From Patescibacteria group bacterium UBA3531 (GTDB taxonomy: Bacteria; Patescibacteriota; Minisyncoccia; Phycocordibacterales; UBA3531): a stretch of 64,000 bases of DNA. The DNA is taken from assembly GCA_002376885.1 (NCBI GenBank), contig DFOW01000001.1:143741-207740 (forward strand), in the 5' to 3' direction. Of this stretch, positions 12,586 through 59,430 are shown one piece after another (positions within the stretch are counted from its first letter, which is position 1; every line of letters begins with the position of its first letter). The notes under the pieces are model-generated. The model was not told the origin of the DNA, did no database searches, and was given only the letters and a program-made list of their open reading frames with translations. The position numbers were made by a program, and so were the translations under genes.

Positions 12586-12587
12586 TA

Positions 12588-12609
12588 GAGGCCCACTTTC
12601 GTGGGCCTC
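12588..12609. terminator. GC hairpin after topA (gaggcccac-tttc-gtgggcctc)
   Basis: Perfect 9-bp stem immediately after topA stop; no strong T-run. Confidence 0.4.
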
Positions 12610-12636
12610 TGAGTTCGTTGTTCTGGAGTTCTGCCT

Positions 12637-12903
12637 CTAGGCCGACTCCGGAATCCCTCCGACCTCCTTGAGACGCCTGTTGGCGCGCTCGAGGAGCTCG
12701 TCCCGATCGTAGCCGGGCCAGACGATCGTACGCGTCCCGGCCAGAAGCGATCGGATGTAACCACCAACACACCTGATACGCCAGGCACCCTGGTTCGCCC
12801 CCCGATCGGTGTGATCACCGAGCTTGTCGATGAAGGCGAGCTCCTGCTGTTGCGTCCACCCGGTGGTCAAAGGCCCCGAAACGGGAACCGATCGACGTGT
12901 CAT
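12637..12903 (-). CDS. G+C-rich ORFan (cassette A), 88 aa
   Basis: GC3-rich frame; AGGAG 6 nt upstream of ATG; own TTGACA-17-TATTTT promoter; no family recognised. Confidence 0.4.
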   Translation of the reverse strand: MTRRSVPVSGPLTTGWTQQQELAFIDKLGDHTDRGANQGAWRIRCVGGYIRSLLAGTRTIVWPGYDRDELLERANRRLKEVGGIPESA

Positions 12904-12942
12904 GTCCTACTCCTTGTTGAAGGGAAAGAATTACTGCCTATG

Positions 12943-12971
12943 AAAATACAAAATAATTTCTTTTTTGTCAA
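12943..12971 (-). promoter_or_regulatory. promoter aTTGACAaaaaag-17-TATTTT for cassette A
   Basis: -35 TTGACA at 12966-12971 (minus), -10 TATTTT at 12943-12948. Confidence 0.45.
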
Positions 12972-13013
12972 TAATACCCTTCCTTTTTCCTTCCGGCTCC
13001 CTATAATCAAGGT

Positions 13014-14450
13014 ATGGCGGATTTACAAGAATTATTTGAGAAAAAGCCCGATCTTAAAAAGAAAGAGAGGGATTTTATAGAAAAAGCATATCGTTTTGCA
13101 CAAGATGCTCACGGCGACCAAAAAAGATACTCGGGTGAGCTGTATTTTAATCATGTGGTTAGGTCAACTATTAATCTTCTTGATTTTAAAGTTGATAAAG
13201 AAACAATTGCGGCCGGACTTCTTCATGATGTCGTAGAAGATTGCGATGTTGAGCTTTCAGTTATTGAAAAAGAATTTGGCAAAGATGTTGCCTCGCTTGT
13301 ATCGGGAGTAAGTAAGCTAGGTACCGTAAAATACCAGGGACGTGAGCGCTATGTCGAGAATATGCGTCACTTATTTTTATCGATTGCAGATGATGTCCGT
13401 ATCCTTTTAATTAAACTTGCTGATCGACTTGATAATGTTCGGACCCTTGAGTTCGTACCAAAACACAAACAAGGGCGAATTGCTCTTGAAACACTTGAGG
13501 TATATGTCCCCCTCGCCAATCGACTTGGTATGGGTAAATTACGTTCTGAACTTGAAGAACCAGCCTTTAAATTTGCCTTTCCAGAAGACTACGCCCAGGT
13601 AAAAACACTTATCACCGAAAAAGGACGGGAGCGAGAAAAATATATTAAAAAAGTATTCAAATCGCTTTCAAAGCAATTAGTAAAAGCTGGTGTTAAAGAT
13701 GCTCACGTAGGATACCGAATTAAAGATACCTACAGTATTTACAAAAAACTCCTCAAAAAAGACATGGATGTTGCAAAAATTTATGACCTATATGCCCTCC
13801 GTGTCATTGTTCCTAAGGTTGAAGACTGCTACCAAGTGCTTGGAATTATTCATAAATTATGGAAGCCTCTCCCTGGCCGAATCAAAGATTACATTGCCAA
13901 CCCTAAAATTAACGGATATCAAAGCCTCCACACAACCGTGTTTACCGGAGATGGCGGTATTGCTGAAATCCAAGTACGGACTGAACAAATGCATACCGAT
14001 GCCGAGTACGGAGTTGCCGCTCATCTTCTTTACAAGGGGTCCCTTGGTAACAAAAAAGAGGAGCGCCTTAAGTGGCTCTCACACATCAGAGAAATTAATG
14101 AAGAAAATACTGGAAGTGAGGACTTTTTGAAAAACCTAAAACTGGATTTGTTTGAAAAACATGTCTTTTTATTTACTCCCCTTGGAGATGTTATTGAGCT
14201 TCCTGAAGGTTCGACAGCGCTTGATTTTGCCTATGCAATCCACTCAGACATCGGAAATCATGCCTCTGGCGTTAGGGTAAACGGAAAATTTGTGTCGCTT
14301 GATACAGAATTAAATAGCGGCGACATTGTTGAGGTCCAAACAAAACAAAATAACAAACCAACAAGAAAGTGGCTTGATTATGCAAAAACAAGTTTTGCAC
14401 AACGCTACATTAGAAACTTTTTAAAACAAGAGAATAAAAAGGAACCCTAG
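13014..14450 (+). CDS. rel: bifunctional (p)ppGpp synthetase/hydrolase, RelA/SpoT family (short)
   Basis: HD domain HGDQKRYSGELYFNHV..HDVVED, RelA_SpoT synthetase core YSIYKKL...LRVIV, TGS-like C-terminus. Confidence 0.85.
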   Translation: MADLQELFEKKPDLKKKERDFIEKAYRFAQDAHGDQKRYSGELYFNHVVRSTINLLDFKVDKETIAAGLLHDVVEDCDVELSVIEKEFGKDVASLVSGVSKLGTVKYQGRERYVENMRHLFLSIADDVRILLIKLADRLDNVRTLEFVPKHKQGRIALETLEVYVPLANRLGMGKLRSELEEPAFKFAFPEDYAQVKTLITEKGREREKYIKKVFKSLSKQLVKAGVKDAHVGYRIKDTYSIYKKLLKKDMDVAKIYDLYALRVIVPKVEDCYQVLGIIHKLWKPLPGRIKDYIANPKINGYQSLHTTVFTGDGGIAEIQVRTEQMHTDAEYGVAAHLLYKGSLGNKKEERLKWLSHIREINEENTGSEDFLKNLKLDLFEKHVFLFTPLGDVIELPEGSTALDFAYAIHSDIGNHASGVRVNGKFVSLDTELNSGDIVEVQTKQNNKPTRKWLDYAKTSFAQRYIRNFLKQENKKEP

Positions 14451-15379
14451 ACTGAGAAGTTACTGATTGAGTACAGGTCTTCCTCTTCTTTTTCCTTAGG
14501 AGGTTCGGGGCTTTCTCTCTCCTCTTTTATTTGATTTTGCTCTTCTTTTTCTTTCTCAATAACTTGCAAAATATTGTCGAGATCGCTCGGAGAGAAGAAT
14601 TCAATCATAATCTTCCCTCCATTTTCTTTTTTCTCAATCCTTACACGTGTACCCAGGCGTTCAGCAAGCTTGTCCTCAAGCTCACTTGTTTCTCTATCAA
14701 AAATTTTGGTTGGCTTTCGAACCTTGTCTTGAGCAATTTTTCGAGCAATTGCCTCTGCGTCACGCACCGTGAGTCGCCTATCAATAATATCTCTAAAAAG
14801 TGTTTGTTGAGCTTCGTCTCGCCCAGAAAGCATAAGAATAGGACGCGTATGACCCTCATTGATTTTTCCTTCCCGTACTGCTTGAAGCATTTCCCCAGGA
14901 AGCATTAAAAGGCGGATACTGTTTGAAACATATTCCCTACTCTTCCCCATCTTTTTTGCAATTTCGTTGTGAGTCAAACTAAATTCATCAGAAAGTTTGG
15001 CAAAGGCTTCTGCACGATCGATAGGATTAAGATCTTCTCGTTGAAGGTTCTCAATAATAGCAAGCTCTAGTTTTACTTTATCGTTATCTTCTTTTGCACG
15101 AATTACTGCTGGAACCTGCGCCAAACCTGCAAGACGTGATGCACGCAACCTGCGTTCTCCTGCAACCAATTCATACTCGACTGCAATTCCACCGTCATCT
15201 TTTGTGATTTCTTTTCTAGTAACAACAAGTGGTTGGAGAACTCCATATTGTCTGATTGAATCAGAAAGACTTTGGAGAGCCTCCTCGTTAAATTCTTTTC
15301 TGGGCTGATGTGGGTTTGGACTAATCTTGTCCGTATCGATAAAAAAAACTGCTTGGCTGTATGGCAATGACTCTGTCAT
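14447..15379 (-). CDS. parB: ParB/Spo0J-like partition protein
   Basis: ISPNPHQPRKEFNEEALQSLSDSIRQYGVLQPLVV ParB box; HTH LTHNEIAKKMGKSREYVSNSIRLL. Confidence 0.8.
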   Translation of the reverse strand: MTESLPYSQAVFFIDTDKISPNPHQPRKEFNEEALQSLSDSIRQYGVLQPLVVTRKEITKDDGGIAVEYELVAGERRLRASRLAGLAQVPAVIRAKEDNDKVKLELAIIENLQREDLNPIDRAEAFAKLSDEFSLTHNEIAKKMGKSREYVSNSIRLLMLPGEMLQAVREGKINEGHTRPILMLSGRDEAQQTLFRDIIDRRLTVRDAEAIARKIAQDKVRKPTKIFDRETSELEDKLAERLGTRVRIEKKENGGKIMIEFFSPSDLDNILQVIEKEKEEQNQIKEERESPEPPKEKEEEDLYSISNFSV

Positions 15380-15439
15380 GATTACTTATACTAAAGCAAA
15401 TTGATTTGCCGAGCAAATTTGAGTACACTGCTTTGGTAC

Positions 15440-15521
15440 GCTGGAGTGGCGGAATTGGTAGACGCGCACGACTCAAAATCGTGTCTCTTCGGAGGTGGGA
15501 GTTCGATTCTCCCCTCCAGCA
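15440..15521 (+). tRNA. tRNA-Leu (anticodon CAA), class II long variable arm
   Basis: GCTGGAG acceptor, D-loop GGAATTGGTAG, anticodon loop CTCAAAA, variable arm TCTCTTCGGAGGTG, T-arm GGGAGTTCGATTCTCCC. Confidence 0.85.
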
Positions 15522-15530
15522 CAATTTAAT

Positions 15531-15653
15531 CCAGGGAAGGAATTGGTAGGTGAAATGTCTGGGAGACATTTCACGACGACTATCTAAATCTTCTCTTCGG
15601 AGGTGGGAGTTCCCTGCCTTGTCGGCAGACAGGGATTCTCCCCCCGGGCACCA
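15531..15653 (+). pseudogene. degenerate tRNA-Leu-derived copy with hairpin insertions (tRNA-like element)
   Basis: Shares D-loop GGAATTGGTAG, variable arm and T-stem with the adjacent tRNA-Leu. Carries a perfect 11-bp hairpin with GGG loop (GTGAAATGTCT-GGG-AGACATTTCAC) and a 21-nt insertion in the T-loop. Anticodon arm destroyed, acceptor ends do not pair, ends GCACCA. Confidence 0.5.
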
Positions 15654-15679
15654 CAGCTCATTGACCAAAGGAACTTCTT

Positions 15680-16090
15680 TTGGTTAAATCAGTAATGGGT
15701 GGCAATGGGTGCCACAAAGCTCATGTACCACTTGTCTTTGGGGAGACAAACGTGAAACAAGGAAGGACGTCCTGTGAAGATCCGTTCGTCAACTTCAACG
15801 ATCACCTCTACAAGCGCCGGGGCATCGGCTCGCTCGAAGAGGGGAAGCTCGAACGGACGGAGGATCGACCCGCCTGGGTGCCGGAGGAAGCGACCGTCGC
15901 TGTACGGACGCGGCGCCTCCACGAACGGAGGGTTCTCGAGGTAACCACGTTCCGCCCGAACGGGAGCGGGTTCATCGAACAGAAGAACATCTTGGGAGGC
16001 GGCCGCGGTAGCATGCCGTCCCCCCAGATCGTGGAGATGCTCCTGAAGGAGGAGTACCCCTCGATCGACGTCCACCTCATCCAGGGCTAG
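15680..16090 (+). CDS. G+C-rich ORFan (cassette B); alternative GTG start at 15752
   Basis: Strong G/C bias at third codon positions in this frame; AGGAAGG just before internal GTG; overlapping minus-strand ORF 15689..16075 treated as GC shadow. Confidence 0.4.
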   Translation: MVKSVMGGNGCHKAHVPLVFGETNVKQGRTSCEDPFVNFNDHLYKRRGIGSLEEGKLERTEDRPAWVPEEATVAVRTRRLHERRVLEVTTFRPNGSGFIEQKNILGGGRGSMPSPQIVEMLLKEEYPSIDVHLIQG

Positions 16091-16111
16091 CGCTTCAGGC
16101 GCACAGCCTTC

Positions 16112-16156
16112 GCGGGGCGTGCGGCACGAAAGTGTCCACGCCCCGCCTTCTTTTTT
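16112..16156 (+). terminator. strong intrinsic terminator (10-bp GC stem + T-run) ending at the miaA ATG
   Basis: GCGGGGCGTG...CACGCCCCGC followed by cttctttttt then ATG of miaA at 16157. Confidence 0.6.
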
Positions 16157-17044
16157 ATGAACAAATCAAAGCTAATCATCATCGGGGGGCCAACAGCAAG
16201 TGGCAAAAGCGACTTAGCAGTTAGTGTGGCAAAAAAATATGGTGGAGAAGTTATTTCAGCAGATTCAAGGCAAGTATATAAGGGTCTTGATATTGGAACA
16301 GGAAAAATAACAAAAAAAGAAATGGGGGGCATTCCTCACCATCTTCTTGATGTAGCAAGCCCTAAAGAGCAATTTACTGCCCAGGACTTTCAAACAAAAG
16401 GAGGCCAAGCTATTAAAAAAATTTTTAAAAAAAATAAACTCCCCATTATTTGCGGCGGCACTGGATTTTATATAGATGCTCTCATATATAAAACTCAATT
16501 TCCAAGCATCCCCCCTAATAAAACCTTGCGCACAAAACTTGAAAAAAAGACACCTGAGGAGCTTTTTAAAATACTTAAGAACAAAGATCCCGAAAGAGCC
16601 ATGGTAATTGATCAGCACAATAAACGAAGATTAATCCGAGCCTTAGAGATTGTAGAAACTTTAGGAAAAGTTCCACAATTACACAAAACATTGCCCTATA
16701 AAATTTTATATATAGCGCTTGATCCAGTTGATCTTGATATAAAAATTCATGCGCGCCTAAAAGCAAGAATCAAACAAGGACTTATAAAAGAGGGGGAAAC
16801 ACTCCATAAAAAAGGTCTTTCGTATAAACGGATGAGAGAGCTGGGGCTTGAGTATAAATATTTAGCAGATTTGCTTCAAGAAAAAATCACTAAAGAAGAA
16901 TTTACTGAACAACTTGAAAAAGAGATCAGGCGTTATGCAAAACGGCAAATGACCTGGTTTAAAAAACAAAAAAATGTTCTTTGGTTTAAACCAAATGAAA
17001 CTAAAAAAATCTCCACAAAAGTAGAGAAATTTTTAGCTCTTTAG
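16157..17044 (+). CDS. miaA: tRNA dimethylallyltransferase
   Basis: N-terminal P-loop IIGGPTASGKS, ADSRQVYKGLDIGTGK, MiaA fold. Confidence 0.85.
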   Translation: MNKSKLIIIGGPTASGKSDLAVSVAKKYGGEVISADSRQVYKGLDIGTGKITKKEMGGIPHHLLDVASPKEQFTAQDFQTKGGQAIKKIFKKNKLPIICGGTGFYIDALIYKTQFPSIPPNKTLRTKLEKKTPEELFKILKNKDPERAMVIDQHNKRRLIRALEIVETLGKVPQLHKTLPYKILYIALDPVDLDIKIHARLKARIKQGLIKEGETLHKKGLSYKRMRELGLEYKYLADLLQEKITKEEFTEQLEKEIRRYAKRQMTWFKKQKNVLWFKPNETKKISTKVEKFLAL

Positions 17045-17045
17045 G

Positions 17046-17117
17046 CGGGTCCACCAGGACTTGAACCTGGAACGGTGGTTTTGGAGACCACTGTTTTACC
17101 AATTAAACTATAGACCC
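17046..17117 (-). tRNA. tRNA-Trp (anticodon CCA)
   Basis: Acceptor GGGTCTA/TGGACCC, anticodon stem GTGGT/ACCAC loop CTCCAAA, T-arm CCAGGTTCAAGTCCTGG. Confidence 0.8.
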
Positions 17118-17183
17118 CTCTCCTGTATGTACAGTGAGGCCATTATAACAGAGAGAGTAGGAAAAGAAATTATTTCTTTACCT

Positions 17184-17210
17184 CGTTATGAATAGTGTGC
17201 TTCCTGCACC
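17184..17210. repeat. 27-bp direct repeat copy of the rpmG 3' end (cgttatgaatagtgtgcttcctgcacc)
   Basis: Matches 17326-17352 (cgttatgCatagtgtgcttcctgcacc) with one mismatch; separated by a GC-rich 105-bp spacer. Confidence 0.7.
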
Positions 17211-17311
17211 TATTACCACTCGGAAACCCACGGTTTTCCGACGGCTTCGCCTGCCTTTCTCCACGGGAAAACTAGAGTTTTCCCGACCCCTTTCCTGCAA
17301 ATGGTACAGGA

Positions 17312-17470
17312 TTACTTTTTTATTTCGTTATGCATAGTGTGCTTCCTGCACCATTTACAGTGCTTTTTGAGTTCAATTTTACGCTCAACAAGCTTCCGAT
17401 TCTTTCGGCTCCAGTAATTAGTGCGCTTACAATCTTTGCACGCAAGTTTTATAAGTTGATCTTGTGACAT
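17312..17470 (-). CDS. rpmG: 50S ribosomal protein L33
   Basis: 52-aa ORF below track cutoff: MSQDQLIKLACKDCKRTNYWSRKNRKLVERKIELKKHCKWCRKHTMHNEIKK, with CxxC...CxxC zinc ribbon and HxxE ending typical of L33. Confidence 0.75.
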   Translation of the reverse strand: MSQDQLIKLACKDCKRTNYWSRKNRKLVERKIELKKHCKWCRKHTMHNEIKK

Positions 17471-17532
17471 ATATTCAAAATTTGAGCTTCATAAAGATAC
17501 CCCATAGACCCTGAAAAATCAAGAGAAAAGGC

Positions 17533-17928
17533 TCACCATGCGGCGAGCCTTCCTTCCCCCGTGCCCTCGGGCTTGGGAGGAATGGCGCTTCTCTGCGGCC
17601 TTCGGAAGAACTGAGATTCCCCCATGGCACGCAACATCTTGACGAAGTCGTCCTCGACACAGAAACCGAGCCTCATGATGCACTCGGGACCATCGCAAAG
17701 GACAACGACAGCGTGACTTCCTTGGGCGCCGTCCTTGGGCTGGAAGACCGAGACCCTTCCTTGGAAGCGCCAAGCAACCAAGCAATCGATGAATCCGATC
17801 TTCGTCCCACAACGAGGACAGACGCGCTTGGGGCACCACACCCCAAACCCAGCACCGGCACTGATACTGTCAGCAACCGAAGACCCCCAGGAAGTGACCC
17901 AATAATCTTCGGGAACAATCTGCGTCAC
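17533..17928 (-). CDS. G+C-rich ORFan with 4-Cys zinc-ribbon-like motif (cassette C), GTG start
   Basis: CPKRVCPRCG...CDGPEC; GC3-rich; AAAGGGGGGG upstream of GTG; no family recognised. Confidence 0.4.
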   Translation of the reverse strand: MTQIVPEDYWVTSWGSSVADSISAGAGFGVWCPKRVCPRCGTKIGFIDCLVAWRFQGRVSVFQPKDGAQGSHAVVVLCDGPECIMRLGFCVEDDFVKMLRAMGESQFFRRPQRSAIPPKPEGTGEGRLAAW

Positions 17929-17961
17929 AGCCCCCCCTTTCTGAAAAACACTTTACCTTTT

Positions 17962-17990
17962 TTGACATAAAAAAGAAAGCATAGTATGGT
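17962..17990 (+). promoter_or_regulatory. promoter TTGACAtaaaaaag-17-TATGGT for cassette C plus-strand gene
   Basis: TTGACA 17962-17967, TATGGT 17985-17990. Confidence 0.45.
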
Positions 17991-18303
17991 TTACGTCTGT
18001 TCTTATTGGGGAAGGAGCCCTATAGACATGCACCATGTTGAAGTGCTAGACATCGATGGATTCCAGAACTTCCGCCTACATGAGGGAGACGAGATCATCC
18101 TCCCTGGCGTTCATCTCGAAGCCTCTCCCGCCCCGGGAGACAAGGTGAAGCTCGCCTTCCGTGACGTGGACTGCGTGACGAAGACGAGAGAAGCACTCAT
18201 CACCGGATCCATCGACCCCGGCGAGCCGAGCAACCCGAGGGAGCCCGTGGCTCCCAAGGACATCCGAGTTCGGTGGAACGATCCCATCGTGCGCTGGTCC
18301 TAA
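17986..18303 (+). CDS. G+C-rich ORFan (cassette C), 105 aa (alternative start 18028)
   Basis: GC3-rich frame, followed by strong terminator; no family recognised. Confidence 0.4.
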   Translation: MVYVCSYWGRSPIDMHHVEVLDIDGFQNFRLHEGDEIILPGVHLEASPAPGDKVKLAFRDVDCVTKTREALITGSIDPGEPSNPREPVAPKDIRVRWNDPIVRWS

Positions 18304-18316
18304 CGGACCAGACAAA

Positions 18317-18352
18317 GACCCCCGCGCATGCGCGGGGGTCTCGTCATTTTTA
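18317..18352 (+). terminator. intrinsic terminator GACCCCCGCGCATGCGCGGGGGTC + T-run
   Basis: 12-bp perfect GC stem followed by tcgtcatttttat. Confidence 0.7.
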
Positions 18353-18485
18353 TACAGTGTGCGCCGGGCAGGATTCGGTCACGAGTTACAAATTCGCTTT
18401 GCTCATAAGTACTCTCGACCCCAGCTCAAAAATAATCTCCCAGATTATTTTTTCCGCTCTTCGAATCCTAATTCCAGTCCAGAAA

Positions 18486-18516
18486 TAAAAAACCCGGCAC
18501 AAGGCCGGGATTTTTG
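18486..18516 (-). terminator. intrinsic terminator after tRNA-Tyr (CCCGGC-loop-GCCGGG flanked by A5/T5)
   Basis: aaaaacccggcacaaggccgggattttt; minus-strand RNA has U-run after stem. Confidence 0.6.
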
Positions 18517-18526
18517 ATCTCTGTGT

Positions 18527-18609
18527 GCGCCGGGCAGGATTCGAACCTGCGTAGGTCTAAGACCGGCGGATTTACAGTCCGCTGCAATTGACCACTCTGC
18601 CACCGACGC
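18527..18609 (-). tRNA. tRNA-Tyr (anticodon GTA), long variable arm
   Basis: Acceptor GCGTCGG/CCGGCGC, anticodon stem GCGGA/TCCGC loop CTGTAAA, T-arm GCAGGTTCGAATCCTGC. Confidence 0.85.
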
Positions 18610-18653
18610 AAAAGCACGAGTAAGTATACACAAAAACTCGTGTCTTTTACAAC

Positions 18654-28163: not shown

Positions 28164-28192
28164 ACTTGACAAAAGCACGATTTTATGCTAAT
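28164..28192 (+). promoter_or_regulatory. promoter cTTGACAaaag-17-TAATTT for cassette D
   Basis: TTGACA 28164-28169; AT-rich -10; AAAGAGG RBS before ATG at 28297. Confidence 0.4.
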
Positions 28193-28296
28193 TTTGATGC
28201 AGGTTAGATAGCACCGCGGTGGTGCACCAGACTGTACGTCGCAGTGCGACAGTTCATCGTCAACTCACTTTCTAGCGAAGAAAAGAGGTAATATTC

Positions 28297-29475
28297 ATGT
28301 CAATCATAACCCTGACGTTGATCGTCTTCGTCACGCTCCTTGTTCTGAGTGTGCCGTTGTTCGTCCTCGTTGCGTGGCTCCTGGCCTACCTGGATATCTT
28401 TTTTGGATTCCTCCAGGAGAATACGGGCTTCGCCAAGATCGTTGGAGACAACCAACTTCAAAGCATGCAAATCGCTTCGAAGAGTCAGCACCTCAAAAGG
28501 AAGGTGGTCCAACACCCTGAGGCGGGCGCAATCGAGACGTGGGTTCTGGAACAAGGAGCAGATCCCAACCCTGCCTTCGGCCTTATTGGTTGGATGGAGC
28601 GCAAGCTTGGTGTCTACTGGATTGGTGTTTGGCCGTTCCAAAGGCGCTACCGGTACGAGATGTTCCGAACCGTCTTCGATCGGAGTGCTGACGCAGACGA
28701 GAACACGATCCTCCGGAAGAATGACCAGAGCAAGTTCTTCTACGTTCAGCCGGTGGAGTACGCCTTCTCTCTCCTCGGAGCAGAGACAGGCAGTGCCTTC
28801 GCTGGCGACACAGAAGATACGGACACTTCGTCTCGGGGTGGCAACATCCCGGTGAACGTGAAGTTCTCCGTGTTCCTCTTGATCACAAGACCCGAGATTG
28901 CCCTCTTCAAGAACCCTGTATGGTTCGAGCGAGCAAGCTCGATCCTTCTGTCCGCAGCGAAGAACTACGTCGGCACTCGTGCGTATGAGGCGCTCCGTGG
29001 CGAAAGCCGATCGGACACCGCAGACGTCGAGACCGATGATGCCTTCGCGGGCTACATGCGGGATCTGAACGAAGCGATTCCGGGAACCGGTCACGGCTTC
29101 GAATCCGAGATCGGTGCCAAGATCGTCGGAGCGGCCATCAGAGCCGTCGACATCACGGCGGAGGGCGAAGAGGCCCGAAGCGCAACGCTGCTCCTCTACG
29201 GAGAAGAGCAGCGCGCCAAGGGAATCCGAGCCGTCGCTGATGCGCGTCGCTACGAGCTCGAACAGGAGCTCGATGCAGTCGATGGATCCCCCAACGGGGG
29301 GCACGTCCGTCGGATGCGCGCGATCGAGCGTGCAGGTGAGCGTGGTAACACAATCATCTTCACGAGCGGCGGCGACGAAAAGGAGGATCGTGTCGCAGCG
29401 AACCTTCTGGCTGGCCGCAAGGGTGAAGACCCCTCAAGCGAAGGCACCGATGACTCCACCGAGAAGGAGGAGTAG
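28297..29475 (+). CDS. G+C-rich SPFH/band-7-like membrane protein (cassette D)
   Basis: N-terminal TM, beta-rich core with ...ASSILLSAAKNYVGTRAYEAL..., EIGAKIVGAAIRAVDI, then A/E/R-rich coiled-coil AEGEEARSA...RAKGIRAVADARRYE as in HflK/C-flotillin. Confidence 0.5.
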   Translation: MSIITLTLIVFVTLLVLSVPLFVLVAWLLAYLDIFFGFLQENTGFAKIVGDNQLQSMQIASKSQHLKRKVVQHPEAGAIETWVLEQGADPNPAFGLIGWMERKLGVYWIGVWPFQRRYRYEMFRTVFDRSADADENTILRKNDQSKFFYVQPVEYAFSLLGAETGSAFAGDTEDTDTSSRGGNIPVNVKFSVFLLITRPEIALFKNPVWFERASSILLSAAKNYVGTRAYEALRGESRSDTADVETDDAFAGYMRDLNEAIPGTGHGFESEIGAKIVGAAIRAVDITAEGEEARSATLLLYGEEQRAKGIRAVADARRYELEQELDAVDGSPNGGHVRRMRAIERAGERGNTIIFTSGGDEKEDRVAANLLAGRKGEDPSSEGTDDSTEKEE

Positions 29476-30252
29476 ATGAAGATGCCTGACTCGATAAGGG
29501 GGCTTGGGTGGAAGCGGTTCTCCGCAACTGCCCTTACCTCGTTCATCCTCGTCATTGTCTCGTTCATGATCGTGAACGCAGGCGAGGGCGAGGCAGAGAA
29601 GGTCTTCAAGACTCTCTCTGTGATTGCGACCGGGATTGGAGCACTCCTCGTTCTCCTGCTTCTTCTCGTGATCGTGTCGTCTCTTGCTCGTAGGCGTCGG
29701 TCTCTCAAAAAAGAGACTCCCGTCGTCGACAAGCCGACCAAACCAGGAAGATGGCAGAAGTTCAGGGCCACTCCCTTCTTCTGGACACTCTTCAAGGTCT
29801 CCGCCTTCGTAGTGGCAGTAGTCATTGCAATAAGCGGATTCCCTCTGTTGCGTGACGCCATGAACATCCCCGACGTGGGGCCCAGGAATGGAGATCTCAA
29901 GTTCTCCAAGTGGACGCTCTCCAGTACACCACTGTCGTACAACCTGAATCGAACGACACGTGGTACGGTCAAGATCTGGAAGAAAGAGCGTCGCTTTGAG
30001 CTTCCGTTCTTCTTGAACATGAAGCTCATGGGCGAGGATGGAGTTCTCGTGGGGCAAATCACCTCGAGTGACTTTGCCATGGGCGAGACCTTCCCCGTCA
30101 CCTGGGAGATGACCTGGCGAGACCATATGACCGGAGACGGAGCCCTCGAGTGTCACTACAACAAACACCACAGCGTGATTGCTTGTAACGGCACCATCTG
30201 CGGCGAAGATTCCGAAGGTCGGAGGTGTCGTCGAGTGAACTTTAGCGGCTAG
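29476..30252 (+). CDS. G+C-rich membrane protein (3 TM + Cys-containing soluble C-domain), start abuts upstream stop; possible NfeD-like partner
   Basis: TAG-ATG junction at 29473-29478; three hydrophobic helices; no family recognised. Confidence 0.4.
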   Translation: MKMPDSIRGLGWKRFSATALTSFILVIVSFMIVNAGEGEAEKVFKTLSVIATGIGALLVLLLLLVIVSSLARRRRSLKKETPVVDKPTKPGRWQKFRATPFFWTLFKVSAFVVAVVIAISGFPLLRDAMNIPDVGPRNGDLKFSKWTLSSTPLSYNLNRTTRGTVKIWKKERRFELPFFLNMKLMGEDGVLVGQITSSDFAMGETFPVTWEMTWRDHMTGDGALECHYNKHHSVIACNGTICGEDSEGRRCRRVNFSG

Positions 30253-30267
30253 AAAGGAGAAGACATC

Positions 30268-30339
30268 CTCACATCTAAATATATAGATGTGAGAAAATGG
30301 GCCCTGTCCGCCATATGCGGATAGGGCCTGTTTCTTTGT
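30268..30339. terminator. tandem hairpins between convergent cassette D and pilin array
   Basis: CTCACATCTA-aatatat-AGATGTGAG and GGGCCCTGTCCGC-cata-TGCGGATAGGGCC + tgtttcttt. Confidence 0.55.
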
Positions 30340-30825: not shown

Positions 30826-31139
30826 GCTCCTATAAATACACAAAGTGTGTTTAATATTGCCCACACCCCTGCCATAATTACAAATCCAATAATCCCATAA
30901 ATTGCATTACGTTTTCCTCTCGCTACCTTGTCTTCGCTGTCTGCTCCGTAAATCCATTCAATAACTCCCCACGCAAATACAATCATGGCAACAACAAACA
31001 TAAGGCCAATCAAAGGACGCAAAATAAACAGTTGGATATTAAAAAGAATTTCTTCAAGTCTGCTTGTTTGGGCAAGCGCCACAAGTGGAATAAATAAAAA
31101 AGAAGTGACAATACCCAAAGCCTGTATGTGTCGTTTCAT
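30819..31139 (-). CDS. pilin-like paralog P2
   Basis: MKRHIQALGIVTSFLFIPLVALAQ signal; MFVVAMIVFAWGVIEWIYGADSEDK...IYGIIGFVIMAGVWAIL; start at internal ATG 31139. Confidence 0.5.
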   Translation of the reverse strand: MKRHIQALGIVTSFLFIPLVALAQTSRLEEILFNIQLFILRPLIGLMFVVAMIVFAWGVIEWIYGADSEDKVARGKRNAIYGIIGFVIMAGVWAILNTLCVFIGAC

Positions 31140-31219
31140 AATTACAGTATACCCACAAAACCTAAAAGGAGCACCATAGGTGCTCCTTTTAGTGTATATA
31201 AGTTTACCGAAGTAATTTC

Positions 31220-37801: not shown

Positions 37802-37830
37802 TTGACAAATATATATAAATATGATATTAT
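37802..37830 (+). promoter_or_regulatory. promoter cTTGACAaat-17-TATTAT for cassette E
   Basis: TTGACA 37802-37807, TATTAT 37825-37830. Confidence 0.5.
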
Positions 37831-37889
37831 AAGAATAGAAACATAGGGAAAGGCATTGTGCCCCTACTGCTCACCACAAGGAGAATACC

Positions 37890-38249
37890 GTGTATACCGC
37901 AGCATCTCTTTTTCTGATCATCTTCTGCGTGGCATGCTCCCCTGTGGAGGAGGCAAGCCCCAGAGAGAAAGTGAATGAAATCCGGCAGGGTTTCGTGAAT
38001 GACATCGGAGATGAGGGCCTAGAGAAGGCTCTTGAGAACCTCTCGCAGGAATGCGAGAAGCTCGAAGGCTACGGCTTCAGTGTCAAGACCCTCAACAGGA
38101 CTCGAGGCGTCTACAAGATCAAGATCACTGGGCCCAACGTGGCAACCCAGGTGATCTTTCAGACCTCTGAGTCAGTCGACGAGCAATCCTCTGCAGAGCG
38201 CCTGGACGCTCCTACACTCAAGGGGTTTGAGGCTCCCATTCTCCAGTAG
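37890..38249 (+). CDS. G+C-rich putative lipoprotein ORFan (cassette E)
   Basis: Signal LFLIIFCVACSP with lipobox-like Cys; GC3-rich; GAGAATACC-GTG/ATG context; terminator follows. Confidence 0.4.
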   Translation: MYTAASLFLIIFCVACSPVEEASPREKVNEIRQGFVNDIGDEGLEKALENLSQECEKLEGYGFSVKTLNRTRGVYKIKITGPNVATQVIFQTSESVDEQSSAERLDAPTLKGFEAPILQ

Positions 38250-38288
38250 TACCAAGGCTTCGCCTGACAGCCTAAAAGGACTCGGGCA

Positions 38289-38322
38289 ACACACCATCTT
38301 GGAAGCAAGGTGGTGTTTTTGT
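38289..38322 (+). terminator. intrinsic terminator ACACCATCTTGG-aagc-AAGGTGGTGT + TTTTTG
   Basis: 11-bp stem (1 mismatch) plus T-run. Confidence 0.6.
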
Positions 38323-47269: not shown

Positions 47270-47312
47270 AAAACCACCCAAGAGGACTGGAACCTTTTTT
47301 GGGTGGCCTTAA
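47270..47312. terminator. bidirectional terminator CCACCCAA...TTGGGTGG with T-runs on both strands
   Basis: After ftsZ stop and after minus-strand cassette F gene. Confidence 0.6.
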
Positions 47313-47902
47313 GTGTGTCGAGTGATGTAGATCACGCGACGACACCCAATTACGAACTCTTTTTGGAGGAGGTCTAGGAGTTCTGGATAGTTTCTCCTTT
47401 CTCTAAGCCATGCGTACGAGAAGGCGTCACACACTCTTTCACATTCCCTGTATTCCTCACCGAACATTCCCGACAGAACATCCTGCAGATCTTCGCTCAC
47501 GCCCCTTACGAGTGAAAAGACGTGGGCTAGTTCGTGGCCGACACCAACAATCCATTCCTCGAGCGTCTCGTGCGCAGCGAGCACAATGTGAAGAGGAGGA
47601 GTGCCCAGAGCAATACTTGCCCCAGGTCTCCACGAAACTTCCCAGGGTGTTTCTCCTGGAATGTCATCAAATCGTGTCACCGTAATTGACTCTATATGAA
47701 ATGCCTCGAGTTGTTCTGTCACAGTTCCCGGAGGAATCATGGCAAGCATCTCTTCAACGAATCGATTATGATTCCCCACAATTCCTCCTTTCGAAGAACA
47801 ATTTATCCTAGTATACACTATGCGGAACATCATACGAAAAAGTTGGAACCGCCTTGAGGAGTATGTATTTGAGTCTTTTGAACTTCTCCAAAACAAAAAC
47901 AA
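47309..47902 (-). CDS. G+C-rich HExxH-motif protein, putative ImmA/IrrE-like zinc metallopeptidase (cassette F); alternative start 47749
   Basis: IVGVGHELAHVFSLV motif; GC3-rich; N-terminal 51 residues may be non-coding. Confidence 0.4.
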   Translation of the reverse strand: MFLFWRSSKDSNTYSSRRFQLFRMMFRIVYTRINCSSKGGIVGNHNRFVEEMLAMIPPGTVTEQLEAFHIESITVTRFDDIPGETPWEVSWRPGASIALGTPPLHIVLAAHETLEEWIVGVGHELAHVFSLVRGVSEDLQDVLSGMFGEEYRECERVCDAFSYAWLRERRNYPELLDLLQKEFVIGCRRVIYITRHT

Positions 47903-48037
47903 CCCTGATTTCTCAAGGAAATTGAGTGGGTAGTGGTCACATGGTGTTAGTAGAACATATACACAAAAGAGAACACCCCGCCGAGAGCCTGCGAGGGTTC
48001 TCGGCGGGGTGATGAAGTATCGCTTTTGGGTCAGTAG

Positions 48038-48373
48038 CTAGCTAGACCAGGTCTCCATCCCGACCAGCACAGAAATGATGGTCAGGACAATGAAGATGGG
48101 AATTCCGACTGCTCGCCCAAACCTTGCGTAAAGGTAGAGCGTGATGGAGTTGCGAATGACACCCTCGGGGTCGTGCTTGCGAAAGCAGAAGTTGGCGAAC
48201 ACCGACAGGGGGCACCACAGAAAGATGACTTGACCAATTACGGTCAACAGGATTGCCAACCTTGTGATGTGATTCGGCAACCACAGCTCTCCGAAGATGA
48301 GAACTGCAACAATGAAGACTGCGTGGAATGCCTCAGTTGCGATACCGAGGCAGAGCCATCCTTTTTTGGACAT
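48038..48373 (-). CDS. G+C-rich small membrane protein (cassette F)
   Basis: Track ORF 48038..48541 trimmed because its 5' end runs through tRNA-Ser; start at MSKKGW; 3 TM. Confidence 0.4.
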   Translation of the reverse strand: MSKKGWLCLGIATEAFHAVFIVAVLIFGELWLPNHITRLAILLTVIGQVIFLWCPLSVFANFCFRKHDPEGVIRNSITLYLYARFGRAVGIPIFIVLTIISVLVGMETWSS

Positions 48374-48468
48374 TACTTTACCTCGGTTGGGGGAACTACA
48401 AGACGAAGGATTTCGTCCTGTCTTAACCACAAATAGCCTACCACAAGATAGGCTATTTGTCAATACTA

Positions 48469-48731: not shown

Positions 48732-48786
48732 GGGGCGATTAGCTCAGCTGGCTAGCAGATAAAACGATACCCCGTATCATTTTATC
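48732..48786 (+). pseudogene. tRNA 5'-half-like fragment (GGGGCGATTAGCTCAGCTGGCTAGCAG) followed by 12-bp-stem hairpin
   Basis: Resembles acceptor + D-arm of the downstream tRNA-Val but has no 3' half; then GATAAAACGATA-ccccg-TATCATTTTATC. Confidence 0.4.
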
Positions 48787-48827
48787 GTTGACATCTTTTA
48801 TTGCTGTGCGCTACCGTTACATTACAA

Positions 48828-52273: not shown

Positions 52274-52275
52274 GC

Positions 52276-53022
52276 ATGGACATAAACCAATTCTTAACAC
52301 TCTTTTTTGCCCTCTTGGGAGGAGGTATCCCCCCTCTTATATGGTTATGGTTTTGGATAAAAGAAGATAAAAATCACCCCGAACCAAAACCACTCATTAT
52401 TGCAACATTTGTAGGAGGAATGATTGCTGTGCCCATTGCTTTTGTTCTTGAAAAAAAGGCAGCGTCTCTTGGACTTGATGGATTTTTATTAGGGACACCA
52501 GGGAAGCTATTTGCAGCTCTTGTTGTCCTTGTTTTGATTGAAGAGATAGTAAAGTACCTTGCCGCACAAGGCATCGCCTTCCCTAACAAACACTTTGATG
52601 AACCCGTAGATGCAATAATTTACATGATTAGTGCTGCGCTCGGTTTTGCAGCCCTTGAAAACACTCTCTTTTTGATTGACGGATTGTCTAGTGCCGGGCT
52701 CATCTCTCAAGGGTTCTTTGCAACGGTGGGGTTAAATGAAGTTTTGATTAATAATAATCTGCGGTTTATAGGGGCTAATGTTCTGCATGTTGTGGCCTCT
52801 GGCCTTATAGGTGTCTTTATTGGATTTTCGTTCTACAAACATTGGTTTGCAAAAATTCTCTACTTTTTAGTGGGCCTTGGGTTGGCAACATTCTTGCACG
52901 CCATCTTCAATTTTTCTATAATTACTTATAGTGATAAGCCGCTTGTGGTGTTCTCGCACCTCTGGCTCATGGCTATACTACTTATCTTTTTATTCGAGCG
53001 TGTTAAACGAGTACGACCATAA
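52276..53022 (+). CDS. prsW: PrsW-family intramembrane metalloprotease
   Basis: Multi-TM with EEIVKYL (EExxK), GFAALEN, HVVASG motifs; start at ATG after valS stop. Confidence 0.65.
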   Translation: MDINQFLTLFFALLGGGIPPLIWLWFWIKEDKNHPEPKPLIIATFVGGMIAVPIAFVLEKKAASLGLDGFLLGTPGKLFAALVVLVLIEEIVKYLAAQGIAFPNKHFDEPVDAIIYMISAALGFAALENTLFLIDGLSSAGLISQGFFATVGLNEVLINNNLRFIGANVLHVVASGLIGVFIGFSFYKHWFAKILYFLVGLGLATFLHAIFNFSIITYSDKPLVVFSHLWLMAILLIFLFERVKRVRP

Positions 53023-53024
53023 CT

Positions 53025-54640: not shown

Positions 54641-54647
54641 ACAGAGC

Positions 54648-57274: not shown

Positions 57275-57300
57275 AGCACTACTATACTAAAGTATTTCTC

Positions 57301-57347
57301 TTAAAAAGAAAGCCGCCTCGAGTCCACAATGGGTACCCGGGCGGCGG
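57301..57347 (-). terminator. GC hairpin + U-run ending the cassette G transcript just upstream of lepA start
   Basis: Minus RNA ...CUCCGCCGCCCGGGUACCCAUUGUGGACUCGAGGCGGCUUUCUUUUU. Confidence 0.45.
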
Positions 57348-57453
57348 AGTGGACGGCACCTGGGTGCGTCCATGGTTTTCTAGTGCGCAAGGCGCACCTT
57401 GGTGGAAGGTCCCAGCTCAAGGGGTGAGCCTCGAGTCTGGGCGGAAGGCGGAT

Positions 57454-57648
57454 CTAGCCGAAGAGGGGCGCACCGAGCGAGACGACCCCGCCGGGCAGGA
57501 TCACGTGACCCCGACCATCCGAACCGAGCGGCGGACCGCTGAGCTCGGAGAACGGGATCTCGCTCTCGCGACGGAGCCGGCGAACCGAGCCACGCGTCCG
57601 GGTGCTCTCCTTGGTGCGTACCGTGCCTTCGCCTTCCTGTTTCTTCAT
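57454..57648 (-). CDS. very G+C-rich small basic ORF (cassette G), 64 aa; coding status uncertain
   Basis: AGGAAGGGAAGGAAT-cccg-ATG context; track ORF begins at TTG inside the -35 box so trimmed to internal ATG. Confidence 0.3.
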   Translation of the reverse strand: MKKQEGEGTVRTKESTRTRGSVRRLRRESEIPFSELSGPPLGSDGRGHVILPGGVVSLGAPLFG

Positions 57649-57715
57649 CGGGATTCCTTCCCTTCCTGAAGTTCTCTTTCGAGCGCGGCCCCCAGCCACG
57701 CTACGTCCACTATCC

Positions 57716-57744
57716 AAACTACTATAATAAAAGTCTTTTGTCAA
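57716..57744 (-). promoter_or_regulatory. promoter cTTGACAaaag-17-TAGTTT for cassette G
   Basis: -35 TTGACA at 57739-57744 (minus); near-identical to cassette D promoter over 20 nt. Confidence 0.4.
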
Positions 57745-57750
57745 GCCCCC

Positions 57751-59430
57751 CTAAAGTTCTTCCTGGTCTGGCAATACAGGCCTTGTTTTACTCACCCGAG
57801 CAACAAGCGCCCGCCTAATATCCTTAATTTCTTGATTACCCAGCGTCTCAAGAAACAAAATACCAACAACAATACCGGCAATGCCAGACAAGAACCCCTG
57901 CAAAAAGATTCCCCAAAAGGTATTGATATCAAATACATCATCAAACACTTGAAGAAGATAATACGCCACAATTCCCATCAAAAGCGCTGCAGCAAGCGAT
58001 TGGAATACACTTTTTCGTATAGAAACATAATATTCTCTAAATTCTTTTTTAAATAAAAGCCAAATAAGAGAAAGATTAAGAAGCGCCCCAACCGAGAACG
58101 CGAGAGGCAACATAAGGACACTGGTACCAGGAATACCCTCAACACGGAAAAGGTTTTCAAAAAAGTCTCTGAATCCTGGGACGCTTGAGAAAATAGAAAG
58201 AAATACAAACCCCAAGACAACACTCACAAGACCCGAAACAAGGTTTACATAAAGCGGCTTTTTTGTATTTCCTGCTGCGTAGTAACCACGCACAAACAAA
58301 TTAATAAGCCCTTGCGCAACCACAGAGAATGAAAAGAGAGCAAGCGCTGCTGCGGTGAGTCTGGTGTCGGTCCACGTAAATTCCCCTGCCCCTAAAATGG
58401 TTCTAACGATTTGCGCACGAAGCACAACAAACAAAGACAGCACGGGCAACGACCAGAAAATAATGTGTTTCCCTGCCGCAACAATGTACTGAACAAAGTG
58501 CGACTTATCGCCATTTGAAAAGAGTCGCGAAAGCGTTGGGAATGCCGCAACCGAATAACTCATACCAATAATGGCAAGAGGGACCGACTGAAGATTATAC
58601 GAGAGATTAAAGATTGCAATTGACCCCTCCTCAATACGCGAAGCAAGCGCCACAAAGACAATAATAAGAATGTGATTCACACTCAAAGTAAGGGTTCGTG
58701 GCAAAGAAAGTGTTACTACTTTTTTAATAGAAGAAAAATCTGGAACAAATGTTATGCGAGGGAAGATTCCTGAACGTACAACTGTTGGGATTTGAATAAT
58801 AAAATGAAAGAGTGCACCAAGAATAACTCCGTACACCAGCCCCTTGATTCCAAATGGTTCGTATAAAAAAAGAAGCCCAAAAATGATTGCAAGGTTGTAA
58901 ACAATCGGGGTAAGAGCGTAGACAAAAAAGCGTCTCATGGTTTGAACCACGCTTCCAAATAAGTTAGAGAGCCCAAGTAAAAATGGGGAGAGCAACAACA
59001 ACCGAGACAACTCTATAAACGTTTCTTTATTTTCATCACTAAACCCTGGGACCACAATATCTGCAAGGGTTGGCATTAATACATACGCAACCAAAGAAAC
59101 AATAATCATTAAAAGAAGGAAGAAGGTAAGGATACTTGAAAGGAAGTTGTTGAGTTCTTGCCTTCTTTCTTCCCCCAACTTTTCAGTAATAAAAGGAATA
59201 AGGACCGTTGCTGCAACAAGCGAAGCAACCAAGACATAGATGATGTCGGGTACCCTAAATGAGGCGTAATAGACATCGAGTGTTGTCCCTGCCCCAAAAG
59301 TGCTCGCAAAAAGACGGTCACGAACAAGGGCAAGAATTTGAGACCCAAAAGCAGAGATTCCCAAGAGAAACGCGGCCTCGTGAAGGCCGCCAAAATCCTT
59401 ATTAAAAAGCCGTACAATACCGTTTACCAT
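57751..59430 (-). CDS. murJ: lipid II flippase MurJ (MviN)
   Basis: 14-TM MOP family, N-terminal ...LGISAFGSQILALVRDRL.A..FGAG...D. Confidence 0.85.
   Translation of the reverse strand: MVNGIVRLFNKDFGGLHEAAFLLGISAFGSQILALVRDRLFASTFGAGTTLDVYYASFRVPDIIYVLVASLVAATVLIPFITEKLGEERRQELNNFLSSILTFFLLLMIIVSLVAYVLMPTLADIVVPGFSDENKETFIELSRLLLLSPFLLGLSNLFGSVVQTMRRFFVYALTPIVYNLAIIFGLLFLYEPFGIKGLVYGVILGALFHFIIQIPTVVRSGIFPRITFVPDFSSIKKVVTLSLPRTLTLSVNHILIIVFVALASRIEEGSIAIFNLSYNLQSVPLAIIGMSYSVAAFPTLSRLFSNGDKSHFVQYIVAAGKHIIFWSLPVLSLFVVLRAQIVRTILGAGEFTWTDTRLTAAALALFSFSVVAQGLINLFVRGYYAAGNTKKPLYVNLVSGLVSVVLGFVFLSIFSSVPGFRDFFENLFRVEGIPGTSVLMLPLAFSVGALLNLSLIWLLFKKEFREYYVSIRKSVFQSLAAALLMGIVAYYLLQVFDDVFDINTFWGIFLQGFLSGIAGIVVGILFLETLGNQEIKDIRRALVARVSKTRPVLPDQEEL

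Follow-up and report, generated by a model that had tools for sequence, protein, structure and literature searches.

The GC-richness of a scattered set of clade-specific, fast-evolving accessory units with strong predicted promoters may be actively maintained in the genome of the Patescibacteria group bacterium UBA3531, a reading that we hold with evenly balanced confidence. The units lie in a 64,000-nucleotide (nt) stretch of contig DFOW01000001.1, which is called the window here, where seven GC-rich segments resolve into about nine separate transcription units: A, B, C1, C2, D, E, F1, F2 and G. In our ordering of the possible explanations in-place maintenance comes first and renewal of the units from GC-richer close relatives, its main rival, comes next.

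The same DNA is present in contig PAMJ01000009.1 (metagenome-assembled genome, MAG, GCA_002708165.1), in a JGI Tara Oceans assembly and in the Logan assembly of ERR599159. Three assemblies agree at 99.995-100% identity, islands and junctions included, and they are clonal, with at most 1 single-nucleotide polymorphism (SNP) in 21 kb. Since the same DNA, with identical junctions, appears in three independent assemblies, an assembly or binning chimera was excluded. The source is a Tara mesopelagic population of marine, ultra-small Paceibacteria of the Candidate Phyla Radiation (CPR), with a genome of 42% GC. The window ClpB shares 60-68% identity with Patescibacteria/Paceibacteria MAGs among the matches listed, and the nearest ClpB proteins among them are on metagenome contigs L091 (78%) and L092 (76%); L-numbers label the relatives' contigs or loci that were compared. 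The neighbours of the islands are the housekeeping genes topA, relA/spoT, parB, miaA, rpmG, clpB, infB, gyrA, ftsA/ftsZ, tsaD, lepA and murJ.

GC-rich transcription units and their promoters

The units are listed below with their predicted signals (GC3, G+C fraction at third codon positions; CDS, coding sequence; ORF, open reading frame; UTR, untranslated region; aa, amino acids; TM, transmembrane).

Unit A, 12586..12976 (-): -35 TTGACA 12971-12966, -10 TATTTT 12948-12943; CDS 12637-12903, 88 aa, GC3 0.74; terminator 12587-12610, a bidirectional hairpin shared with topA
Unit B, 15661..16156 (+): -35 TTGACC 15661-15666, -10 TTAAAT 15684-15689; CDS 15695 (or GTG 15752)-16090 (+), GC3 0.77; hairpin terminator about 16108-16156
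Unit C1, 17526..17928 (-): weak -35; CDS 17533-17928, 131 aa, Cys-rich with CxxxxCxxC, GC3 0.66; terminator 17526-17553
Unit C2, 17962..18341 (+): -35 TTGACA 17962-17967, -10 TATGGT 17985-17990; CDS 18028-18303 (+), 91 aa, GC3 0.70; terminator 18316-18341
Unit D, an operon, 28166..30333 (+): -35 TTGACA 28166-28171, -10 TAATTT, 96-nt 5'UTR with two hairpins
D1, 28297-29475 (+): 392 aa, SPFH/stomatin-like, N-terminal TM helix, GC3 0.70
D2, 29476-30252 (+): 258 aa, membrane protein with a Cys-rich C-terminus, GC3 0.69
D terminator, 30295-30333 (+)
Unit E, 37802..38322 (+): -35 TTGACA 37802-37807, -10 TATTAT; CDS 37890-38249 (+), 119 aa, putative lipoprotein-type signal ...FCVAC/S read from the sequence, GC3 0.68; terminator about 38286-38322
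Unit F1, 47280..47779 (-): no TTGACA promoter; CDS 47309-47779, 156 aa, HExxH, GC3 0.47; hairpin about 47280-47309, shared with ftsZ
Unit F2, 47974..48463 (-): -35 TTGACA 48463-48458, abutting the 3' end of tRNA-Ser(CGA); CDS 48038-48373 (-), 111 aa, small multi-TM protein, GC3 0.69; terminator 47974-48011
Unit G, 57301..57744 (-), between lepA and murJ: -35 TTGACA 57744-57739, GC-rich 5'UTR hairpin; ORF 57454-57648 (-), 64 aa, basic, GC3 0.80; 150-nt GC-rich 3'UTR; terminator about 57301-57345

A sequence-only reading of this DNA had described seven segments as much richer in G+C than their neighbours, with a strong third-position bias and with boundaries at gene boundaries, and the computed values bear this out. 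In windows of 400 nt the segments reach 0.49-0.61 GC, as against ~0.40 elsewhere, and nine of the ten island ORFs have a GC3 of 0.66-0.80 (z = 8-11.6 relative to the host), compared with a host mean of 0.328 (sd 0.041, maximum 0.43, 57 host ORFs); only F1 is lower, at 0.47 (z = 3.5). The GC3 distribution is bimodal and uniform within the genome, with no intermediate stages of amelioration. The first and second positions (GC1, GC2) depart from the host too, and so does amino-acid usage, lysine falling from 8.5 to 4.1% and arginine rising from 4.7 to 7.6%. The GC-rich state begins close to where transcription is predicted to start and extends as far as the terminator: promoter regions have 0.20-0.44 GC, 5'UTRs 0.42-0.62, CDSs 0.52-0.68, and 3'UTRs with terminators 0.44-0.71, so that each unit consists of an AT-rich promoter, a GC-rich transcript and a hairpin terminator.

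It is very improbable that the GC-rich bodies are something other than genes, that is, structured non-coding RNAs or the product of a chimeric assembly. For the former it can be said that long ORFs arise by chance on either strand of GC-rich sequence, and that G and its counterpart on L171 share promoter, hairpins and terminator without protein similarity, both folding at z ~ -3.5. However, A, C1, D1, D2, F1 and F2 are conserved at the protein level, the ORFs are preceded by ribosome-binding sites, and most of them show GC3 > GC1 > GC2, the order that coding sequence would give. Rfam has no match to any island, a permissive scan over 12400-18700 (islands A-C) included, and the identical junctions in three assemblies speak against a chimera.

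Exact TTGACA occurs at 19 sites in the window, nine of them intergenic, and six of these nine lie 24-131 nt 5' of the island genes A, C2, D, E, F2 and G, in every case with a 17-nt spacer to TAnnnT. A strict script count gave consensus promoters for 5/9 island and 1/38 host units (Fisher p = 4.5e-4). In C2 the -10 box overlaps a mis-called ATG, which places the real start at 18028, and with C2 counted exact TTGACA-N17-TAnnnT precedes 6/9 island units versus 1/38 host units, the sole host unit being tRNA-Val. Unit B has the near-consensus TTGACC-17-TTAAAT, and GC3 is lowest in the two units that lack a TTGAC box (F1 0.47, C1 0.66; the rest 0.68-0.80). Thus the shared promoter that had been noted for A, C, D, E and G is present in all five, and F2 and, approximately, B had been missed. 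Similarly, the terminators described for B, C, D and E are there but are not limited to them, as a GC-rich hairpin followed by a T run terminates all nine units. The suggestion that the box with its A-rich flank might be the site of a specific sigma factor or regulator was not upheld: the A/T-rich flanking bases are not conserved in orthologous promoters, and judging from its plain TTGACA-17-TAnnnT form the box is an ordinary sigma-70 -35 consensus; an alternative-sigma or regulator-specific site was rejected. The adjacency of three units to tRNA genes (Leu-CAA, Tyr and Ser-CGA) was confirmed, and so was the impression of a family-like set with one regulatory design, made up of a consensus -35, an AT-rich promoter and a hairpin terminator.

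The same design occurs in the more distant AT-rich Paceibacteria L053, L117 and L181. In L053 it serves an unrelated small ORF with a GC3 of 0.72 on a background of 0.34. On L181 (SRR24236061 contig, 1-1470) an F1-like HExxH gene and a second GC-rich, UCP032817-like gene stand beside a gene with a GC3 of 0.30; both GC-rich genes are behind TTGACC-17-TAnnnT, so the design is present outside the immediate clade of the window. A scan of ~170 related loci for GC-rich ORFs with consensus promoters returned mostly spurious ORFs over tRNAs and few real cases.

Silent-site turnover and the origin of the GC excess

Orthologous units in sister species have the same place, promoter and terminator, and they are GC-enriched at a level typical of each genome (~0.70 in the window). 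Same-locus counterparts were found for A (L175), C (L177), D (L085-L089 and many others) and the slot of G (L171). The GC3 values in relatives are:

L085/L175 species: A 0.52, D1 0.54, D2 0.55; background 0.29-0.30
L089: island units 0.46 and 0.42; background 0.30
L117: island units 0.67 and 0.73; background 0.46
L177: island units 0.45-0.60

The A orthologue, P0153 (51-55% identity), adjoins relA/spoT-parB in the sister contig L175; its promoter is TTGACA-17-TACTTT, it ends in a hairpin terminator, and its GC3 is 0.52 versus 0.30. The L177 locus contains, in order, a tRNA-Tyr fragment, an ORF in the C2 slot, the TTGACATAAAAAG promoter, C1, rpmG and tRNA-Trp. There the C2 promoter TTGACATAAAAAG is conserved, the C2-slot ORF is weakly similar to C2 (30% over 43 aa, E = 5e-5), and the C1 orthologue P0149 (45-47% identity) likewise lies between C2 and rpmG. 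In L171 the lepA-murJ gap (8663-9071) has 56% GC in a genome of 39%; its TTGACA promoter points the same way as that of G, and it also holds a 5' hairpin, a terminator and a 68-aa ORF with no protein similarity to G. The 5'-proximal hairpins of D and G are kept in relatives despite different sequence, and in D the promoter and the two 5'UTR hairpins can be aligned between the window and L085.

Other units are variable. B is absent from L175, C from the more distant relative L092, and E from L085, L088 and L089; between Lactamase_B_3 and S1 the window has a gap of about 1.55 kb, where L085 has ~160 nt and L089 ~120 nt. The ftsZ-tsaD interval, home of F, holds other genes in L174. These absences, together with the counterparts that stand in place for A, C, D and the G slot, show that the set is a mixture of ancestral and lineage-specific units. 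We infer vertical inheritance of A and C, which would have been present, as D was, in the common ancestor with the sister species, the D operon being older; E and B would have been gained or lost later, at variable spots beside tRNAs or gene ends. The view that these are horizontally acquired or otherwise unusual cassettes therefore holds in so far as the set is aberrant, independently transcribed and partly lineage-specific, but it is not a recent foreign batch, and D in particular is conserved across the lineage, with the same position and promoter in many Paceibacteria.

We measured the turnover of silent sites by pairing 11 host genes of the window with their orthologues in the L085/L175 species (1331 fourfold-degenerate sites). 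At conserved residues 35-45% of the fourfold sites are identical, versus 27-30% expected at saturation, and the G/C-versus-A/T class of a site in the window correlates with that in the sister at 0.026 (95% confidence interval, CI, -0.03 to 0.08, n = 1331). The fourfold sites of the islands are equally scrambled (0.08, CI -0.07 to 0.24), yet their G+C content (GC4) is 0.66 in the window and about 0.55 in the sister. In a two-state model an inherited compositional excess decays by the class-correlation factor, and passive decay to GC4 values of 0.66 and ~0.55 needs a factor of at least 0.18, even from ancestral islands of 100% G/C. A host memory of 0.026 rules out, for A and D, a passive relic still awaiting amelioration, and the excess has either been maintained in place or been renewed after the split. 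A single ancient transfer from a GC-rich donor into the ancestor of the clade, with the excess still un-ameliorated, consequently has next to nothing of our confidence. The uniform GC3 within a genome and the differing levels between genomes would fit lineage-specific decay, but the fourfold memory (upper CI 0.08) falls short of the 0.18-0.36 needed, and the D operon, which is older than the clade, does not differ from background composition in several relatives. Likewise, nine ORFs deviate from the host in composition (GC3 z = 8-11.6) and codon usage as in genomic islands, but too little time for amelioration is contradicted by the correlation of 0.026, where at least 0.18 is needed, and by the congruent tree of D.

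That tree follows from the identities among the window (W), L085 and L089, which are 0.56 (W-L085), 0.50 (W-L089) and 0.49 (L085-L089) for D1, 0.29, 0.22 and 0.25 for D2, and 0.82, 0.73 and 0.70 for GyrA. D1 and D2 thus follow the host pattern of GyrA, S1, the substrate-binding protein (SBP) and the methyltransferase, in which W-L085 exceeds W-L089 and L085-L089, the latter two being about equal. The tree of D agrees with that of the host, and the window copy does not stand out in it, which argues that the D operon of the window is not an import from outside this trio.

Renewal would have to take the form of repeated import, in which modules are swapped among Patescibacteria by transformation or mobile elements and were acquired or overwritten, after the sister split, from a close relative of ~56-60% GC, promoter and terminator coming along. 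We rate this as unlikely, and several observations that count for it also weigh against in-place maintenance. Island codon usage is nearly that of Paceibacteria of 56-58% GC, as import would give: relative synonymous codon usage (RSCU) correlates at r = 0.77-0.86, third positions have A.12, C.40, G.31 and T.17, and leucine shows the same unusual dominance of CTC (51%). Genome GC varies widely among the nearest relatives (51% in L174, 38% in L085), and the D operon of relatives is always behind TTGAC(A/T)-17-TAnnnT, with AT-rich consensus boxes even in genomes of 56-58% GC. The homologues of D1 and F2 have a GC3 at or below background in L034, L072 (0.53 vs 0.63), L082, L112 and L178, the last of which, a 56%-GC genome, carries the closest F2 homologue (48% identity, GC3 0.53 vs ~0.7); such cases are a misfit with universal pro-GC selection and would be expected if genes were drawn from a common pool of intermediate GC. 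The presence of E, B and C does vary among genomes, and the tRNA-fragment repeats, the ImmA/IrrE-like F1 and an rve integrase beside D in L086/L088, where the breakpoint lies 2 nt from the -35 box, show mobile-element activity at these sites. Most detected transfers in Patescibacteria are reported to be within the phylum (PMC12455944).

Against repeated import stand the congruence of D1 and D2 with the host and the absence of a D1 homologue closer than the syntenic relatives among ~15 billion proteins. GC3 is uniform in each genome and bimodal, with no continuum of amelioration, and import would call for separate replacements of the same orthologues in the window, in L085 and in L089. GC-rich Paceibacteria are not richer in consensus promoters, which precede 2.8% of their ORFs as against 7-9.5%, and neither an integrase in the window nor att repeats bracketing any of its islands were found.

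A third way of keeping up the excess, which we consider improbable, is GC-biased gene conversion (gBGC), the units being recombination hot spots, such as hypervariable surface genes, with biased repair of heteroduplexes. The organism encodes DprA and is therefore probably competent, the units are fast-evolving and at variable sites, the pressure extends to all codon positions and the UTRs, and a gBGC-like GC3 excess of recombining genes is documented in many bacteria (PMC4450053). However, a shift of +0.4 in GC3 is in our judgement very large for such an effect, and the sampled population is clonal. In addition, the promoters of 55-110 nt between GC-rich bodies stay at 0.20-0.40 GC, unconstrained spacers included, which conversion tracts would not respect; AT-rich promoters with AT-rich spacers between GC-rich bodies argue against such tracts and for a constraint on the transcribed part.

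Under in-place maintenance a force confined to these transcription units would hold up or renew their GC-richness. As its mechanism we would prefer selection on mRNAs that are strongly transcribed, whose base composition or structure would matter for transcript stability or abundance; only where promoters are strongest would such selection counteract AT-biased mutation, and its target would plausibly be the stable, abundant mRNAs of a few strongly expressed envelope genes. More specifically, a transcription-unit-limited force, either mRNA selection or transcription-linked biased repair or mutation, would keep a consensus-promoter regulon at a GC3 of ~0.7, where the silent-site equilibrium of the genome is ~0.3, and would do so in parallel in several Paceibacteria species; this version we advance tentatively and with less than even confidence. 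The island coding strands have C3 > G3 and T3 > A3, the opposite of what cytosine deamination of the non-template strand would lead one to expect. Compared with dinucleotide shuffles, island CDSs fold at a mean z of -1.93 and host CDSs at -0.21 (p = 8e-6), and the whole transcripts of A, G and the L171 counterpart of G at z ~ -3.5.

Further points weigh against maintenance in place. Ordinary genes of GC-rich Paceibacteria themselves fold at z = -0.98 (sd 1.8), so the structure signal of the islands is in part a by-product of composition and only suggestive. S1, IF2, L33 and Hsp20, presumed to be highly expressed host genes of the window, are not GC-rich, and the strong transcription of the island units is itself deduced from their promoter sequences.

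Products and surroundings of the units

None of the ten island proteins of the window has a Pfam, PHROG, NCBIfam or PADLOC match, and their 90%-identity clusters hold this population only, in agreement with the description of the products as largely ORFans. The set as a whole codes for small accessory proteins that evolve fast, most of them orphans or predicted to be membrane-bound or secreted. The two exceptions that had been named, an SPFH-like and an HExxH protein, were both recovered, as D1 and F1. Among 1.84 billion representatives A and C1 have one relative each, which is the sister copy; C2, E and G have none, and B has none but one repeat-protein match judged spurious. Phage origin was rejected for want of PHROG, INPHARED or IMG/VR relatives, plasmid origin because no relatives were found, and defence systems because no credible PADLOC match was obtained.

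D1 is, on profile and model evidence, a divergent SPFH scaffold. The profile of its 12-member family matches Pyrococcus stomatin in the PDB with E = 9e-8, and also the major vault protein shoulder, stomatin, HflC and prohibitin; Pfam Band_7 is found in 7/12 family members (best 8.5e-13), the window D1 itself being without a match; and Foldseek with the D1 model, which is of low confidence (predicted local distance difference test, pLDDT, 51), returned only SPFH structures (stomatin, HflK/C, prohibitin; E = 5e-7). D1 has three detectable relatives, all syntenic, among 5.8 billion clusters, and further distant syntenic ones were found by tblastn in the fetched loci. D2 is a fast-evolving membrane protein whose orthology is seen at 25% identity (E = 9e-6); it was considered as NfeD and rejected, since none of 11 proteins in the D2 position has an NfeD match.

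Gene order around D in L085-L088 and L089 is that of the window: Na/Ca exchanger, D1, D2, five genes resembling pilins of type IV secretion systems (T4SS), SBP, methyltransferase and gyrA. In the window the five tandem small genes (30361-32415), with T4SS_pilin/TrbC-like Pfam matches, are directly downstream of D and convergent with it. The linkage of D1, D2 and pilins is retained in the distant Paceibacteria L085, L089, L095 and L117; in more distant Paceibacteria D1-D2 is beside pilins, a few kb from clpB and often directly after tRNA-Leu. L085 and L086/L088 (about 9985-10000), two strains or species, encode an identical D1 protein and differ in everything upstream. The breakpoint in L086/L088 is 2 nt before the -35 TTGACA of D, and a gene for an rve-family integrase/transposase is immediately upstream.

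F1 has four remote homologues among the 1.84 billion representatives; GHELxH is invariant in the five proteins and CDxFxxxWL is conserved. An AlphaFold 2 (AF2) model (pLDDT 75) has PprI/IrrE as best folds (Foldseek probability 0.99-1.0, E only 2e-3, TM-score 0.46-0.50), which is suggestive of an ImmA/IrrE-like (COG2856) fold; F1 has no Pfam match and no adjacent Xre-type partner. F2 has ~30 homologues of 107-135 aa, all small membrane proteins, in the same set.

Two partial copies of tRNA genes lie at the islands:

15592..15651 (+): fragment like the 3' part of tRNA-Leu, between tRNA-Leu and unit B, 70 nt past tRNA-Leu
18357..18386 (-): 3' fragment of tRNA-Tyr, between tRNA-Tyr and unit C

The first has 21 nt identical to tRNA-Leu(CAA) 15484-15504, then a 21-nt hairpin within the T-loop, a GC-richer acceptor 3' strand and an encoded CCA end. 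A similar fragment, with the T-loop insertion and ending ...GGGCACCA, lies downstream of tRNA-Leu(CAA) in L175, though B is absent there; because it is kept in the sister it may be functional rather than debris. The second has 21 nt identical to tRNA-Tyr 18523-18543, 147 nt downstream of that gene at the edge of island C, and a 30-nt stretch including the repeat is 100% conserved in L177 (about 100-130), where the adjoining C2 CDS cannot be aligned. Both 21-nt repeats bracket spacers of 70-147 nt only and not the GC-rich bodies. A tRNA 5' fragment (GGGGCGATTAGCTCAGCTGGCTAGCA, resembling the start of tRNA-Val) followed by a hairpin occurs at 48732-48800, between tRNA-Glu and the TTGACA promoter of tRNA-Val.

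Some other features of the surroundings deserve mention. At 17169-17358 the 3' end of rpmG (L33) is duplicated over 48 nt (85% identity) around a GC-richer insert of 94 nt, which L177 lacks; it resembles the outcome of a small insertion at a gene end that left a long target duplication. Just past E (38322-38390) there are AT-rich palindromes (TATTTGTACAATT/AATTGTACAAATA; TTACGC..ACGTAA), followed at 38404-39070 by perfect 16-nt inverted repeats 635 nt apart (AAGAAACCACATTTGG / CCAAATGTGGTTTCTT) around an AT-rich 90-aa ORF (38506-38778, minus strand). This element, in a 1.4-kb segment that the sisters lack, may be an insert resembling a miniature inverted-repeat transposable element (MITE) or an insertion sequence (IS). 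A free-standing, AT-rich LAGLIDADG-like ORF (25884-26630, weak Pfam match) occupies a variable intergenic spot next to tRNA genes, and an AT-rich 221-aa ORF of L092 (9077-9742), putatively LAGLIDADG-like, is found likewise at a variable intergenic spot beside tRNA genes. Upstream of the Hsp20 gene a stretch of 751 nt (52274-53024) shows no obvious ORF of host composition. The Rfam scan of the window at the gathering score gave tRNAs and RNase P only, the latter being a class A bacterial RNase P RNA (59713-60045, minus strand, 122 bits), the sole non-tRNA match.

Known parallels and significance

The literature searches found no published description of such units in Patescibacteria. The closest parallel in design are the morons described by Hendrix and colleagues, autonomous promoter-ORF-terminator modules of deviant composition in prophages. 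Like morons, the island units carry their own sigma-70 promoter and intrinsic terminator, have deviant composition and encode small orphan products; unlike them, they lie between chromosomal housekeeping genes, have no phage homologues, include several orthologous units and one that is clade-wide, and are GC-richer than the host, not simply different. Acquired DNA is usually AT-richer than its host, whereas the island units are GC-richer. With tRNA-linked genomic islands and islets they share atypical composition, the adjacency of three units to tRNA genes, tRNA 3' fragments and presence/absence variation, but they are tiny (0.4-2.2 kb) and lack an integrase, the repeats do not bracket them, and their composition outlasts the saturation of silent sites. 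Integron cassettes were rejected, as each unit has its own promoter, there is no shared repeat family and the units are scattered over 45 kb. The D operon resembles the SPFH operons of stomatin, HflKC and QmcA: D1 combines an N-terminal TM helix with an SPFH domain and a long helix, and the next gene in the transcript encodes a membrane protein, an arrangement known from SPFH-NfeD pairs. It differs in that the window D1 is beyond the reach of Pfam Band_7, D2 has no NfeD match, and the operon is tied to a T4SS-pilin-like cluster.

Which of mutation, selection and gBGC sets the G+C content of bacteria is a long-standing question that is usually approached by genome-wide averages. To our knowledge the published G+C effects are genome-wide or are small shifts between gene classes, much smaller than the one seen here; the island shift, by contrast, amounts to +0.35-0.45 in GC3 in a few transcription units of a 42% GC genome. 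Pro-GC selection (the work of Raghavan, Kelkar and Ochman, PMC4478552) and biased conversion (PMC4450053) in bacteria have in common with the present case the need for a force against AT-biased mutation, and the within-genome effects in print concern gene classes or recoded genes (PMC4450053, PMC4478552).

Here, orthologous island genes hold a GC3 0.25-0.4 above that of neighbours sharing their replication and mutational environment, after complete turnover of silent sites. Nine units with defined promoters and terminators make a compact and testable system in which selection on transcripts, gBGC and serial import can be set against each other, and if maintenance in place is true they would offer a naturally occurring example, resolved to single genes, of base composition that is selected or driven independently of the genome. 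Island finders that rely on composition would flag every one of these units as foreign, which would be wrong for at least part of them. The units also flag what are probably abundant, fast-evolving envelope proteins of an uncultured marine member of the CPR, among them a putative SPFH scaffold beside pilins, a predicted lipoprotein and small membrane proteins, and these envelope-type proteins may be candidates for contact with a host cell.

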